A stretch of 20,000 bases of DNA from an uncultured virus (IMG/VR IMGVR_UViG_3300025174_000006) (IMGVR_UViG_3300025174_000006), one strand, 5' to 3'. Positions 9,661-19,902 are shown, counted from the stretch's first letter. Notes: a model not told the origin generated them from the letters alone. Program-made: numbers and translations.

Positions 9661-10116
9661 ATGAGAAACATCAGAAAAATGATAAGGAAAATTTTAACAG
9701 AAGAATTAAAACCCACTGTTGTGTACTCAGCTGTTGTTATTGAGAGATTTGAAGATATTGGGAAGTTGGATTTGATTTTTAGTAAGTACATCGAAAACGG
9801 TTGGAAAAAACCAACTCATTATCACATGACTATTGGACCGGGAAAATTTCCTGAGAGCTTGTATTTAAAAGGAGATTTAGACAAAGAAGTGACATTAGAA
9901 ATAACGTCTATTGGAATTTCAGAAAAAGCTATTGCACTTGGAGTTTCTGGATATTATTCAAGAAATGATAATCCACACATTACTATTGCTTTCAATAAAG
10001 AAAATGGAGGCAATCCGGAAGATAGCAAAGTGATTGAAAATTGGGGACATATTGATAATTTTTATGTAACCGGAATAATAAGAGAAGTTGGAGAAAATAA
10101 TTTAGTTATTAAATAA
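9661..10116 (+). CDS. 2H phosphoesterase-family protein
   Basis: Two HxT motifs (YHMTI, PHITI); N-terminal IRKMIRKILTEE helix. Confidence 0.75.
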   Translation: MRNIRKMIRKILTEELKPTVVYSAVVIERFEDIGKLDLIFSKYIENGWKKPTHYHMTIGPGKFPESLYLKGDLDKEVTLEITSIGISEKAIALGVSGYYSRNDNPHITIAFNKENGGNPEDSKVIENWGHIDNFYVTGIIREVGENNLVIK

Positions 10117-10120
10117 TTAG

Positions 10121-10199
10121 TACCTTCAATAGGATTCGAACCTACATTTTCAGCTCCGTTACACTTATTGAGTCCGTAGCTCAATGTGGCTATAAAGGC
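10121..10199 (-). tRNA. Atypical tRNA-Arg(ACG)-like RNA lacking a normal D-arm
   Basis: Acceptor GCCTTTA/TGAAGGT, anticodon arm ATTGAG-CTACGGA-CTCAAT, canonical T-arm GTAGG-TTCGAAT-CCTAT. Only 7 nt separate the acceptor and anticodon stems. Confidence 0.7.
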
Positions 10200-10200
10200 A

Positions 10201-10887
10201 TTATATTAATTCATATCGTTTTGCCCACTTTCTCACCGCAACATCACTAACTCCAAATTTTCTACCAAGTGCACAATATGAATTATTTTCTATCATTTCT
10301 TTTAATTCTTCTTTAGAGGGTCTGTTTTTTACTTTTCTAAAATTTAATCTAGGTACATATTTTCTCGTTGTTTTTTTATTTGTTTTATTTTTTTTTGCAT
10401 TTTTTCTGTCTACGCCAATTTTACCACGGCAATGAGTTTCTAATGTGAAATTGCAGTTTGGACATAAAAATCTTAAGTTTTCTAATCTATTATCATTATT
10501 TATTCCGTTTTCGTGGTCAATAATTAAACTAATTTTTTTACCTCTCCATATTTCTCCTTGTCCACATTCTTTACATTCATATTCTATCATGTTATTATCT
10601 CGTATTCTTTTTTTTAAACAAGCCCTTGCAACAGAACTGTTTTCACAAAAAATTTCTTCATCACTTTTCCTTAATAATCTGTCTTCATTAAACATTTTTT
10701 TAGCAAAATCACTACGGTTTAAAAAATGAGAAGTATCTATTGACCATTTATTTAAATTTGTTTTAAGTATTTTATAAGATGAAGAAGAATCGCTTCTTCC
10801 AGATTTTACTATAACATCTCTAAATGTGATGCTTTCAGATACTAATTTTTGTAATTCTTCTTTTGTATATTCTTTATGTTCTTTCAT
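10201..10887 (-). CDS. HNH homing-type endonuclease with C-terminal HTH
   Basis: CKEC...IDHENGINNDNRLENLRFLCPNC and LGRKFGVSDVAVRKW; lies inside the tRNA array. Confidence 0.85.
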   Translation of the reverse strand: MKEHKEYTKEELQKLVSESITFRDVIVKSGRSDSSSSYKILKTNLNKWSIDTSHFLNRSDFAKKMFNEDRLLRKSDEEIFCENSSVARACLKKRIRDNNMIEYECKECGQGEIWRGKKISLIIDHENGINNDNRLENLRFLCPNCNFTLETHCRGKIGVDRKNAKKNKTNKKTTRKYVPRLNFRKVKNRPSKEELKEMIENNSYCALGRKFGVSDVAVRKWAKRYELI

Positions 10888-10944
10888 AATTCTAACTTAT
10901 TTTAATGTAAATAGGTTAGAATTTTTTAATAAAGTAAATAGTTG

Positions 10945-11020
10945 AGGATAAGAAGAGAATTAAACTCCTGTTAAATATGTTTTGCAGACATATCCCGATT
11001 TCAACATTGGGTACTTATCC
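10945..11020 (-). tRNA. tRNA-Cys(GCA), copy 2
   Basis: GGATAAG/CTTATCC acceptor, U73, ATATGT-CTGCAAA-ACATAT, T-loop TTTAATT. Confidence 0.85.
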
Positions 11021-11048
11021 TTGTAAAAATTAAAAAAGTAAATAGTTG

Positions 11049-11124
11049 AGGATAAGAAGAGAATTAAACTCCTGTTAAATATGTTTTGCAGACATATCCC
11101 GATTTCAACATTGGGTACTTATCC
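11049..11124 (-). tRNA. tRNA-Cys(GCA), copy 1
   Basis: Identical to copy 2. Confidence 0.85.
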
Positions 11125-11137
11125 TTGTAAAAATTAA

Positions 11138-11409
11138 AAAAGTAAAATCCTAAGTATAGCCGCGATTTTGTTCTATCTCATCATTTATCTGAAGGTATTG
11201 CTACCAACTGGAGACTTTAAACGTCTACCACGCACCTACCCGACTATCAACAACGTAAAGGTTCCCCGTCTACAGTCTGTTTGGCTTGCATCCTATGTTG
11301 CGGAAGTACATACGCTATTTGTTATAGCTTCTTCCTCCTTTTAAAAGATGTCGCGAACTTCCTCTCGATTTTAAGAATCGAGCGATGAGTCCTTCAGGAT
11401 TTTACTTTT
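11138..11409 (-). ncRNA. rnpB: Minimal RNase P RNA (~270 nt)
   Basis: Long P1 (GTAAAATCCTGA/TTAGGATTTTAC) and P2 (CTCATC/GATGAG). Conserved blocks GAGGAAGTTCGCG, GCAAGCCAAACAG, GGGTAGGTGC, AGATAAATGA and AACAAAATCGCGGCTATA occur in bacterial RNase P order. Confidence 0.9.
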
Positions 11410-11413
11410 CTTG

Positions 11414-11485
11414 AGGCTCCACTGACAATCGATGTCAGGACTCAAATTTACAAGATTCGTGTTTTGCCACTTAAACTACGGAGCC
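11414..11485 (-). tRNA. tRNA-Thr(TGT)
   Basis: Cloverleaf GGCTCCG/TGGAGCC, anticodon loop CTTGTAA, T-loop ATCGATT. Confidence 0.9.
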
Positions 11486-11501
11486 ATTATTTGTTCTTAT
11501 G

Positions 11502-11575
11502 TGGAATCTACCGGCATTGAACCGGTCTCTCAGGCGTGCAAGGCAAGTGTTCTAAGCCAAATGAACTAAGACCCC
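11502..11575 (-). tRNA. tRNA-Ala(TGC)
   Basis: G3:U70, anticodon loop CTTGCAC; anticodon stem has two mismatches. Confidence 0.85.
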
Positions 11576-11613
11576 AATTTAATTTGTTCAAAGTACAAAT
11601 TATTAAAAACTTT

Positions 11614-11689
11614 TGGCGAGTATGACCGGTCCTGACCCGGCGACCTCCTCATAGACAGTGAGGCATTCTTCCAACTGAACTACACACTC
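11614..11689 (-). tRNA. tRNA-Asp(GTC)
   Basis: CCTCA-CTGTCTA-TGAGG, G73, encoded CCA, T-loop GTCAGGA. Confidence 0.9.
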
Positions 11690-11701
11690 ATTATTTTTTA
11701 A

Positions 11702-12010
11702 AAAAGTAAGACGCCATTTCGCTGATAGCGTTTTTTGTGTTCTGTTTAATGCGCCAAAGAACATCTGATTATGTTCAGCATTTAGCGTTCATGCTTGGTT
11801 ATTATAACATACTAACATTCCTAATATTGTCTGATTACCTATTTTGAGTTTGCATAGTAGGTTGATTTTTATTTCCAGGGTAAAAATCAACAAACAAACC
11901 TAACGTCTGATAAACTTTATTTTTCATCCGGTAAACGTTTTGTACATTGTTTAGTTCATTAGGCTAAAACAACACGTCTTTTTCACGGACAACATTAGTA
12001 ACTTACTTTT
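11702..12010 (-). ncRNA. Unidentified ~310-nt structured RNA
   Basis: Ends pair (AAAAGTAAG/CTTACTTTT), multiple nested helices, no long ORF; sits between tRNA-Ile and tRNA-Asp. Confidence 0.7.
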
Positions 12011-12014
12011 CTTG

Positions 12015-12088
12015 TAGTGCATCTGAGAATTGAACTCAGTACTTCCACGTTATCGGCGTGGCACTCTGGACCGATGAGTTAATGCACT
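12015..12088 (-). tRNA. tRNA-Ile(GAT)
   Basis: AGTGCAT/ATGCACT, CCACG-CCGATAA-CGTGG (C33). Confidence 0.9.
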
Positions 12089-12102
12089 GTTTTTATTTAA
12101 AG

Positions 12103-12175
12103 TCTAGGTGGCCTGCTCCGACCAGGCGGTCTCCAGTTCCCAAAACTGGCGGATTTCCAACTTTCCCACACCTAG
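12103..12175 (-). tRNA. tRNA-Pro(TGG)
   Basis: CTAGGTG/CACCTAG, CCAGT-TTTGGGA-ACTGG, T-loop GTCGGAG. Confidence 0.9.
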
Positions 12176-12213
12176 AAATTTTGTTTATCTTTCCAAACTG
12201 TCTTTTAATAAGA

Positions 12214-12276
12214 GTTCAAGCTCGGTTATCCACCGATTCGAAGGACTGCATTAGCCTTCTCTGCAGACACTTGAAC
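12214..12276 (-). ncRNA. Small 63-nt three-way-junction RNA with pseudoknot
   Basis: GTTCAAG/CTTGAAC, CTGCA/TGCAG and TCGGT/ACCGA stems; loop GAAGG pairs with downstream CCTTC. Confidence 0.6.
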
Positions 12277-12278
12277 AT

Positions 12279-12354
12279 TGGAGCGAAAAACCAGGTTCAA
12301 ACTGGCGACCCCCAGAGTGGAAATCTGGCGCTCTATCAACTGAGCTATTTTCGC
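12279..12354 (-). tRNA. tRNA-Gly(TCC)
   Basis: GCGAAAA/TTTTCGC, U73, encoded CCA, anticodon loop TTTCCAC, T-loop TTTGAAC. Confidence 0.92.
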
Positions 12355-12443
12355 TTATGTATATAATTCTCTCAGACCATATTACCAAGATTTACTTTGG
12401 ACTCACCGTATTTTAAAAGTGAGCAGAATTGTATTTAATTAAA

Positions 12444-13391
12444 TTATTCTAATAATAATTCATCAATTGTTAAAATTGAATTTAAATTATCTATTGTTTT
12501 TTTAAATATCATTTTAACATTAATGTTGTTTTGTTCTAATACTAAACTCATTTTTGTTTTATCTATTATTGAATAATATCCTTTAGTTTCTATGTATAAG
12601 TTAAAATTTGGCAAATAAAAATCTGGCACATACGTTTTTTCAACACCTTCTTTAATATATTGAATATATATTTTTCTAATCCACAATATTTTATTGTCAT
12701 TTAACCATTGCGACATTTTTAATTCATATTTTCCTCTTAAAGAATATTCTTCACCAATAATATTTTTTTGTTTATAAAATTTCACATGTTTAAAATTGTT
12801 ACTTATTTCATTTTCTTCTAACATCTTGGAGTGAGATTTGCTAATTTTCGATTTTTGTTCAGAAGAAAGTGGCTTTCCTAATTGGTGATGTATTCTCTTA
12901 CCAGTAGCATACATTTCTTTTTGTTGCTCAGATGCTTTATTTACCCTATTATCAGTTTCCTTTGTAAGTCCTCTTGACCATCCCATTTTTGATTTAGTCT
13001 CTGCATTACTGTATTTTTTATTTTTATATTCAACTCCATCCGGTGTATGCATTTGAAATATATGACCACATATACCAAGTTTGTGAAATATTAATTCGCA
13101 ATGAGGACATTTATATTTATCTACATCAACTTTCCAAGATTCATCTACTGTTATTTGTTTTTTATTAACTGTATTACATTTATTATAATGCCTTTCAAAA
13201 TTAGAAACAGAAATATTTTTATTACATTTATCACAACATTTTGTGTTTTTAGGTTTTCCAAGTAAAGAAATACTTAAATTTTTTAATCTTTCTTTTAACT
13301 TTGGATTAGATTCACAATTTACTATATGAGCACCAAATTGTTGTGGGATCTCAAACTCAAAAGACTCTTTGCAATGCGGACAAGTTTTCAT
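12444..13391 (-). CDS. Homing-type endonuclease (Zn fingers, NUMOD3-like segment, PD-(D/E)XK domain)
   Basis: Several CxxC...H motifs, GKPLSSEQKSKISKS and YVPDFYLPNFNLYIETKG. Confidence 0.8.
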   Translation of the reverse strand: MKTCPHCKESFEFEIPQQFGAHIVNCESNPKLKERLKNLSISLLGKPKNTKCCDKCNKNISVSNFERHYNKCNTVNKKQITVDESWKVDVDKYKCPHCELIFHKLGICGHIFQMHTPDGVEYKNKKYSNAETKSKMGWSRGLTKETDNRVNKASEQQKEMYATGKRIHHQLGKPLSSEQKSKISKSHSKMLEENEISNNFKHVKFYKQKNIIGEEYSLRGKYELKMSQWLNDNKILWIRKIYIQYIKEGVEKTYVPDFYLPNFNLYIETKGYYSIIDKTKMSLVLEQNNINVKMIFKKTIDNLNSILTIDELLLE

Positions 13392-13460
13392 ACTTTTTTA
13401 TTATAAATAGTATAAAAAATTGCAGGTTAGAAAATTGTTAGCACGTTATTGTTTTTTGAG

Positions 13461-13543
13461 TGGGAGTTGATGGAGACGAGCCACCCGAGTTTTAAAACAA
13501 CCGATTTACAGTCGGTCCCGCTACCCCTACGGAATAAACTCCC
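13461..13543 (-). tRNA. tRNA-Tyr(GTA)
   Basis: GGGAGTT/AACTCCC, ACCGA-CTGTAAA-TCGGT, long variable arm, T-loop CTCGTCT. Confidence 0.9.
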
Positions 13544-13555
13544 ATTTTAATGTTG

Positions 13556-13627
13556 CACAGACGGTTATAATCGAAATAACTACGTGTAGTTTTTGGAGAA
13601 CTCACCGACACCAAGCCTGTCGTCTGT
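13556..13627 (-). tRNA. tRNA-Trp(CCA) with atypical D-region
   Basis: ACAGACG/CGTCTGT, G73, anticodon loop CTCCAAA, T-arm GTTAT-TTCGATT-ATAAC; A8 instead of U8. Confidence 0.78.
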
Positions 13628-13666
13628 ATTTTATCTATTTTTTAAGCTGTAAGATAATTAGCTAAG

Positions 13667-13738
13667 TAGCGAAAACTGGAATCGAACCAATGTAGACACA
13701 GCTTATGAGACTGGTGGGAAACCAACATCCTTTTCGCA
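13667..13738 (-). tRNA. tRNA(CAT), Met; 1:72 mismatch, possibly initiator-like
   Basis: TGCGAAA/TTTCGCT, anticodon loop CTCATAA, T-arm ATTGG-TTCGATT-CCAGT. Lacks the three GC anticodon-stem pairs of typical initiators. Confidence 0.75.
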
Positions 13739-13751
13739 ATATATTTTTTTG

Positions 13752-13824
13752 TAGCCCCTGCCGGTCCTGACCCGACGACTTCATTCATGTAAAAAATGCA
13801 CTCTACCAACTGAGTTAAGGGGCT
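13752..13824 (-). tRNA. tRNA-Val(TAC)
   Basis: AGCCCCT/AGGGGCT, CATTT-TTTACAT-GAATG, T-loop GTCAGGA. Confidence 0.9.
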
Positions 13825-13829
13825 ATTAG

Positions 13830-13903
13830 TAGCATATATCAGAATCAAACTGATGACCTTCCTCATATGAAAAGGACGCTCTAATCAACTGAGCTAATAT
13901 GCT
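13830..13903 (-). tRNA. tRNA(CAT), elongator Met or Ile2
   Basis: AGCATAT/ATATGCT, TCCTT-TTCATAT-GAGGA, T-loop TTTGATT. Confidence 0.85.
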
Positions 13904-13913
13904 ATTTAAAAAG

Positions 13914-13985
13914 AGCGGGTGATGAGGATTAAACTCACGGCCTCATCCTTGGCAAGGATGCGCTCTATCGCTGAGCTACACCCGC
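13914..13985 (-). tRNA. tRNA-Gly(GCC)
   Basis: GCGGGTG/CACCCGC, U73, CATCC-TTGCCAA-GGATG, T-loop TTTAATC. Confidence 0.92.
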
Positions 13986-19829: not shown

Positions 19830-19902
19830 TGCTTCCAGTTGGACTTGAACCAACGACCCGAAAATTAAGAATTTCCTACTCTACCATCTGAGCTATGAAA
19901 GC
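19830..19902 (-). tRNA. tRNA-Lys(CTT)
   Basis: GCTTTCA/TGGAAGC, GGAAA-TTCTTAA-TTTTC, canonical D- and T-loops; outside the main array. Confidence 0.93.

Follow-up and report, generated by a model that had tools for sequence, protein, structure and literature searches.

A 20,000-nucleotide (nt) stretch of DNA from an uncultured virus (IMGVR_UViG_3300025174_000006), referred to here as the window, contains an array of transfer RNA (tRNA) genes in which the elbow contacts 19-56 and 54-58 have been changed in many members. The contacts appear to have been rewired rather than lost, because the two partners usually changed together, and selection thus seems to keep the L-shape of the molecule. Compensated rewiring of the elbow under relaxed constraint is the most likely process behind this pattern, and we give it an even chance. 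The array is a strong but not unique case of such rewiring in phage tRNAs.

The elbow numbering was fixed by Infernal alignments to RF00005, and positions and strand came out as they had been read in a preliminary description made from the DNA alone. The tRNA genes of the array are co-directional, lying on the minus strand between 13985 and 10121. The preliminary description had reported a GA dinucleotide in the D-loop together with U56 in four tRNA species, and both ARAGORN and Infernal bear this out. The genes are tRNA-Gly(GCC) (13914..13985, 64 bits), with G18-A19, the D-loop AGCGATA and the T-loop TTTAATC; a CAU-anticodon tRNA of the Met or Ile2 type that is not initiator-like (13830..13903, 58 bits), with the D-loop AGTTGATTA and the T-loop TTTGATT; tRNA-Gly(UCC) (12282-12354, or 12279..12354 with the encoded CCA; 63.6 bits), with the D-loop AGTTGATA and the T-loop TTTGAAC; and two identical copies of tRNA-Cys(GCA) (11049..11124 and 10945..11020, 40.3 bits each), with the T-loop TTTAATT. 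GA occurs with U56 in these five genes (5/5) and GG with C56 in all of the others (10/10). This covariation is significant both for the 15 genes (Fisher p 3.3e-4) and for the 14 distinct sequences (p 1e-3).

Five further window tRNAs lack T54, again as first described. The T-loop is GTCAGGA in tRNA-Val(UAC) (13752..13824, 47.2 bits) and in tRNA-Asp(GUC) (11617-11689, or 11614..11689 with the encoded CCA; 47.4 bits), and GTCGGAG in tRNA-Pro(UGG) (12103..12175, 45.5 bits); all three have G54 and G58. The loop of tRNA-Tyr(GUA), CTCGTCT, has C54 and U58, and that of tRNA-Thr(UGU) (11414..11485, 49.4 bits), ATCGATT, has A54, retains A58 and is closed by a C53-G61 pair. Altogether, 10 of the 15 window tRNA genes depart from the canonical elbow (G18-G19, T54, U55, C56, A58). 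The tRNA-Lys(CUU) gene outside the array (19830..19902, minus strand, 62 bits), the first of a second tRNA cluster running past the window, has a canonical elbow, in agreement with the preliminary description.

The window is included in a near-identical viral record (G001), which is linear, 212,632 bp long and estimated to be 81% complete. The same phage was found in three other assemblies (L745, L748 and L752) with identical tRNAs and one Cys copy, and the stretch is contained in 20 DNA runs from 17 studies labelled as soil, sediment or groundwater metagenomes; none of the 20 was an RNA run. Therefore, the sequence of the window is not an assembly artefact. The tRNA array belongs to an uncultured phage of soil, sediment and groundwater with an AT-rich genome of about 210 kb. 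None of the 19 open reading frames (ORFs) in the window is preceded by a Shine-Dalgarno-like motif, and this, together with a G+C content of 29%, hints at a Bacteroidota-like host without proving it. DNA similarity between the window and 514 phage records was confined to the Tyr tRNA. When three window proteins were compared with cultured phages by tblastn, the outcome was either no match or a single weak one, to an uncultured phage, and a search for relatives of a 202-residue ORF adjoining the array found none.

In the parts of G001 that were fetched, ARAGORN reported 22 tRNA genes, counting one Cys copy, and 10 of them have a changed elbow contact. G19-C56 is replaced by A19-U56 in four tRNA species and T54-A58 by G54/G58 in three; other 54/58 combinations occur in Thr, Tyr and, outside the window, His, the T-loop of which is GTCGTAG. 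U55 and the purine at position 57 are unchanged in 22/22 tRNAs, and every variant tRNA keeps G18. The paired changes and the invariant U55 and R57 indicate that the fold is under selection. Departures from consensus are also raised at position 33 (3/22 tRNAs, against 12/437 in the comparison) and at the 53-61 pair (3/22 against 2/437), which fits a general relaxation of constraint.

The direction of change could be read from a sister phage. A metagenome scan with two RNase P (ribonuclease P) core motifs gave 10 loci, three of which (L745, L748 and L752) belong to the window phage itself. A small RNase P related to that in the window is present in L750, L751 and L753, and L750 and L751 also share the order of the tRNA genes; the DNA upstream in L750 is 81% identical to the window. 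The best-matching tRNA pairs between the window and the sister are 61-80% identical, and their stems have been kept through many substitutions. The Val, Asp, Pro and Tyr orthologs in the sister have T54/A58, differing from the window genes at both partners. The T-loop of the L750 Val ortholog is TTCGAAC and that of the Asp ortholog is TTCGAGT; in the Asp pair, all ten bases of the T-stem are shared, and the loop differs at four of its seven positions. In related phages, the Tyr T-loop is TTCGACT or TTCGATT. Both partners also differ in the Cys ortholog of L751 (GG with TTCAATT) and in the closest L750 match of the CAU tRNA (identity 0.73), which has the canonical GG/C56. Variants at 54/58 are absent from the 18 tRNAs of L750 and the 8 of L751.

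Since the sister orthologs of Val, Tyr, Asp, Pro and Cys and the match of the CAU tRNA are canonical, most of the changes arose in the lineage of the window, and as judged from these alignments, most of the rewiring is recent and specific to that lineage. The exception is Gly-GCC, which has A19-U56 in both the window phage and L750. The window Gly-UCC has no similar counterpart in L750 and resembles the Gly-UCC genes of Bacteroidia (0.80) more than any gene of the sister. L750 has oddities of its own, namely a CAU tRNA with the D-loop AGGAGTA and the T-loop TGCAAAT, for which inspection by eye gives A18/G55 although our rule for positions 18-19 labelled it GA, and two D-loops that lack GG. Both sister loci also share a tRNA call of 95 nt in which the anticodon has four bases (aggg; L750:5409-5503 and L751:1612-1706). 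The claim that the changes are compensated is thus well founded: positions 19 and 56 are coupled in 15/15 window genes, and both partners have changed in CAU, Cys, Val, Asp, Pro and Tyr. This coupling, together with the change of both partners relative to the orthologs, makes selection to keep the contact likely.

The number of independent events is smaller than the number of variant genes, because a tRNA with a given variant has its closest kin in the array among the others with that variant. The identities are 0.74 for Gly-UCC and CAU, 0.68 for CAU and Gly-GCC, 0.68 for Asp and Val, and 0.65 for Asp and Pro, whereas over the array the median is 0.54 and the 90th percentile 0.62; a 14-base T-arm core is identical in Val and Asp. 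It had been argued that recurrent, compensated changes point to selection rather than decay. The paired changes and the retention of U55 and R57 uphold this argument in part, but the recurrence was overstated because of the kinship within the array. In a plausible history, A19-U56 was already present in Gly-GCC, may have re-entered with the cell-like Gly-UCC and would have passed to the CAU tRNA through duplication or gene conversion, while Cys probably acquired it independently.

Other phages show how unusual the array is. A baseline was taken from 119 viral loci picked by a D-arm motif that also matches a canonical GG followed by AT; it covers the matches listed for these motif-picked loci, and positions 18-19 were assigned by our own rule on ARAGORN D-loops, with some noise. 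Among these matches, GG/C56 is present in 447/454 tRNAs and T54/A58 in 439/453, and any elbow variant in 18 of 337 distinct neighbours after the motif-bearing tRNAs were left out. The proportion in the window phage (10/22) is significantly higher (Fisher p 5e-7). A19-U56 is found in 4/22 tRNAs of the phage and, among the matches listed, in 1/337 in other arrays. G54 occurs in 4/22 tRNAs, against 3 of 973 other phage tRNAs (p 6e-6). Variants at 54/58 of any kind were counted in 33/973 other phage tRNAs and in 1 of 318 distinct cellular tRNAs; the commonest in other phages is A54-U58 (19 of the 33), whereas the window phage favours G54/G58. A 14-base T-arm pattern gave 120 chance matches, none inside a tRNA, and was uninformative on frequency.

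A more specific A19 motif was found on at least 118 viral contigs. The contigs listed contain 522 viral tRNAs, of which 91 are GA/U56, 20 GA/C56 and 385 GG/C56, and none is GG/U56. Arrays already holding an A19 tRNA are richer in elbow variants among the other members (54/404 neighbours, against 18/337 in the baseline; p 2.6e-4, among the matches listed). Variant-rich arrays in IMG/VR include L200 (7/23) and L194 (5/12), and L200, L194, L181, L184 and L140 resemble the window in having several compensated tertiary-pair changes per array: A19-U56, A18 with G55, U19-A56, C19-G56 and A54-U58. We rejected the possibility that A19 tRNAs are peculiar to the window, since they were met on other viral contigs and on cellular ones as well. 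In L120 (LR745206.1), a 634-kb uncultured phage, one Gly-UCC has A19-U56, another Gly-UCC has A19/C56 and an Ile-UAU has A54/U58. A GOLLD RNA, a transfer-messenger RNA and a group I intron adjoin variant-rich arrays (L158:8435-8929, L194:8518-8901 and L140:8068-8254). Our literature searches returned no description of A19-U56 in tRNA or of elbow changes in phage tRNAs. PMC7583486 and PMC4574755 offered nothing relevant to these changes, and elbows are not discussed in PMC8421152.

The A19-U56 pair is not exotic, since some Bacteroidia normally have it in their tRNA-Gly(UCC). The A19 motif was found on at least 120 bacterial or archaeal genome contigs, and among the matches listed, 102 of 105 A19 tRNAs have U56. 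Most of these are tRNA-Gly(UCC) of Bacteroidia; the others are Gly-GCC of Clostridia and Bdellovibrionota, Ala-CGC of Opitutae, Candidate Phyla Radiation (CPR) bacteria and alphaproteobacteria, and, in small archaea, Thr, Met and Ala tRNAs. The native Bacteroidia type was defined by the D-loop AGTYGATA and the T-loop TTTGANN in a Gly-UCC body, and the phage Gly-UCC falls within it; the same loops are found in genome G006. This phage gene is 80% identical to Bacteroidia genes (Prevotella, Paludibacteraceae), although their anticodon loop is CTTCCAA and that of the phage gene is TTTCCAC. In a Marinilabiliaceae genome, the only variant among 74 distinct tRNAs is a Gly-UCC with D- and T-loops identical to those of the phage gene, and a Peregrinibacteria genome has two variants among 45, an Ala-CGC and a Cys with A18 and G55. 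The A19 D-arm motif is present in only 7 of 201 evenly sampled Bacteroidota genomes. A19-U56 is therefore a viable, naturally used alternative, normally of one isoacceptor per genome; in the phage, it extends to four species, including Cys and the CAU tRNA. The description of G19-C56 as near-universal was too strong, as A19-U56 recurs on the viral contigs listed and is native in cells. Eukaryotic initiator tRNAs and animal mitochondrial tRNAs also work with non-standard 54/58 or 19/56 contacts, in other domains and with other changes.

The array also contains a 262-nt gene for an RNA resembling that of RNase P (11141..11402, minus strand; RF00010, 39.2 bits, E 6.4e-10). Its alignment with RF00010 runs over the full length and retains the blocks that correspond to the conserved core, while the specificity-domain segment is reduced from 110 model positions to 20 nt. 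Bacterial type A RNase P RNA has both domains and a gathering score of 100 bits, a level that the phage RNA does not reach. Judging from this alignment, it is truly related to bacterial RNase P RNA but lacks most of the elbow-docking domain. According to PMC5839562, the catalytic domain alone cleaves, less efficiently. Small RNAs of this family are present on several unrelated viral or metagenome contigs, as a rule no more than about 10 kb away from a tRNA array (L750:5001-5185, L751:1219-1403, L753:212-386, L371:5971-6211 and L450:280-515), and a published description of a small phage RNase P RNA was not found in our literature searches. The RNase P gene had been placed in one operon with the tRNAs. 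However, the upstream tRNAs are separated from the RNase P gene by a terminator-like hairpin (11731-11711), and a single operon is thus not established.

Several other explanations of the altered elbows were weighed. An RNase P without its elbow-docking domain could free the elbow from constraint during 5' processing and let variants accumulate, as the preliminary description had suggested. The position of the gene inside the array, the loss of most of its specificity domain and the elbow oddities in both branches of the clade formed by the window and L750/L751 are in keeping with this, but the link has no generality. U56 and 54/58 variants are both absent from the 15 and 14 tRNA calls of two other viral lineages with a related RNase P (G002/G005 and G003, respectively), although three low-scoring G002 calls have D-loops not readable as GG by our rule; the sister L750 has the same RNase P and no 54/58 variant; seven variant-rich arrays gave no RNase P match in the 63,331 bases of their loci; and cells with ordinary RNase P have A19-U56 tRNAs. 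With the hairpin also separating the upstream tRNAs from the gene, we regard this explanation as very unlikely. Decay, in which the variant genes would be pseudogenes drifting after the phage ceased to need them, would account for the low Infernal results of Tyr (partial, 23.3 bits), the CAU-like gene (25.4 bits) and Trp (no match), and for the off-consensus bases at 33 and 53-61. Pseudogenes should show uncompensated losses, however, and most of the variants are compensated, with U55 and R57 invariant and the stems kept between diverged orthologs. Moreover, the A19-U56 tRNAs score 58-64 bits, Cys 40 bits, and Val, Asp and Pro 45-47 bits, all above the cut-off of 29. Of the weak genes, Tyr folds with four arms and Trp as a cloverleaf. 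We consequently attach little credence to decay as the general cause. The variants might instead copy the tRNAs of the host lineage, as the identity of Gly-UCC to Bacteroidia genes, its loops equal to those of one Marinilabiliaceae gene and the absence of Shine-Dalgarno-like motifs, which would fit a host of the Bacteroidota type, could suggest. Mimicry is nevertheless highly improbable, given that variants are rare even in the cellular genomes that have them, the A19 motif is scarce in Bacteroidota, 54/58 variants are nearly absent in cells and the orthologs of the sister phage are canonical. It had been proposed that finding the same variants in host-lineage tRNAs would refute selection on the phage tRNAs; this applies in part, since A19-U56 is native in cellular lineages.

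In the remaining explanation, selection favoured the elbow changes, and G54/G58 in particular, for blocking a factor that reads T54, pseudouridine 55 or C56, while the tRNAs would still translate. Such a factor could be a T-loop nuclease, a toxin or a modification enzyme of the host, a prophage or a competitor. Evasion of elbow-recognising host nucleases or toxins had been put forward in the preliminary description, and our tests lent it no support. The enrichment of G54, the direction of the G54/G58 changes against the AT mutation pressure, the concentration of the Asp changes in the loop with the stem unchanged, and the excess of 54/58 variants in phages over cells argue for this, as do the homing endonucleases in the array and the duplication of one Cys unit. 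According to PMC10264068 (van den Berg et al., 2023), anticodon-loop changes let phage tRNAs evade tRNA-targeting defences; like the window tRNAs, those tRNAs depart from the host consensus where proteins read them, but in the anticodon loop, whereas the changes in the window phage are in the elbow. A 2026 report (PMC13096335) links a phage homing endonuclease to amplified anti-defence loci acting against a Septu system that cuts tRNA-Tyr. On the other side, no elbow-reading defence nuclease was identified in this analysis, PMC10264068 mentions neither the T-loop, the D-loop nor the elbow, only 10/22 tRNAs are changed and in several ways, A19-U56 goes with the AT pressure and is native in cells, and common ancestry within the array lowers the count of independent events. 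Adaptive escape of this kind is therefore unlikely to be the general explanation. Its strongest form, in which the lineage rebuilt the elbows of nearly half of its tRNAs after its split from the sister, with G54/G58 against the AT bias, and so hid them from a factor reading the face formed by T54, pseudouridine 55 and C56, is rather improbable. If true, it would add a second, structural axis of tRNA counter-defence beside escape through the anticodon loop.

Compensated rewiring under relaxed constraint, a typical condition of accessory phage tRNAs, would have started from variants that are viable in cells, such as A19-U56 in tRNA-Gly, and part of its spread through the array would be due to duplication or gene conversion. 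The changes G-to-A at 19 and C-to-T at 56 go with the AT bias of the genome, three genes (Tyr, Trp and CAU-like) are weak by Infernal, and elbow variants cluster in certain phage arrays, all of which favour this process. The variant tRNAs are probably working products. Several points weigh against relaxed rewiring. T-to-G at 54 and A-to-G at 58 oppose the AT bias of a genome with 29% G+C, and this, together with the enrichment of G54, looks directional rather than neutral. The near absence of 54/58 variants from cellular tRNAs makes a phage-specific pressure possible. The three genes under the Rfam cut-off may be decaying. Finally, the baseline consists of motif-picked loci and listed matches, and both the ARAGORN loop parsing and our rule for positions 18-19 are noisy. 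Within compensated rewiring, the G54/G58 class may still bring an adaptive benefit, for example by evading enzymes that recognise the T-loop; G54 tRNAs would be unable to carry 5-methyluridine at position 54. Such a benefit does not depend on the neighbouring small RNase P.

Phage tRNAs are now viewed as tools of counter-defence, and attention has so far been directed to the anticodon loop. The present results indicate that the elbow contacts 18-55, 19-56 and 54-58 also vary in phage tRNAs in a compensated fashion, clustered in particular phages, with the 54/58 class almost confined to phages. The ortholog-matched pairs of canonical and rewired tRNAs are natural material that bears on the role of the T-loop in modification, RNase P processing, the ribosome and nuclease recognition, and on whether elbow changes protect tRNAs.

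With default settings, ARAGORN called 11 tRNA genes in the array in addition to Lys-CUU, and a lowered threshold added Tyr, Trp and a second CAU-like gene. Genes were assigned to RF00005 at 29 bits or more (the gathering score) with a full-length cloverleaf alignment. This was found for Gly-GCC, Gly-UCC, CAU, Ile, Thr, Asp, Val, Pro, Ala, both Cys copies and an odd ACG gene, and not for the three genes added at the lowered threshold. tRNA-Ile(GAU) (12015..12088, 57.9 bits) and tRNA-Ala(UGC) (11502..11575, 43.6 bits) have canonical elbows. tRNA-Tyr (13460..13543) has a long variable arm and an ARAGORN score of 99.9, just under the default; in its minimum-energy fold, the acceptor, D, anticodon and T arms are present and the long variable region is unpaired, with a z-score of only -1.15. 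The tRNA-Trp(CCA)-like gene (13555..13627; ARAGORN 91.5) gave no Infernal match at E up to 10, and its minimum-energy fold is a cloverleaf with a canonical T-loop. The CAU-like gene (13667..13738) also has a canonical T-loop, with an aberrant D-arm.

Three non-tRNA genes lie within the array, all on the minus strand: the RNase P RNA-like gene and two endonuclease ORFs. An endonuclease I-like ORF of 315 residues (12444..13391) matches Pfam PF05367 (E 9.7e-9) and PHROGs endonuclease families. An HNH homing-endonuclease ORF of 228 residues (10201..10887) matches phrog_10822 of PHROGs (E 6.7e-43). Adjoining the HNH gene, a tandem duplication of 104 bp (10944-11124) comprises the Cys tRNA with its flank; G001, L745, L748 and L752 have a single copy. 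Between Gly-UCC and Pro, the segment 12196-12280 (minus strand) has an 8-bp acceptor-like stem and a T-arm-like hairpin with no tRNA match; it may be a tRNA remnant, since two Pro genes stand at this place in the sister phage. The last gene of the array (10121..10199, minus strand, 34.6 bits) has an ACG anticodon in the Rfam alignment, almost no D-arm, a long extra region and a canonical T-loop, and a normal Arg-ACG is located at the matching place in L750 and L751. The adjoining ORF at 9661-10116 (plus strand) has a weak, sub-cut-off match (E 4.8e-4) to LigT-like 2H phosphoesterases, a family acting on RNA ends.

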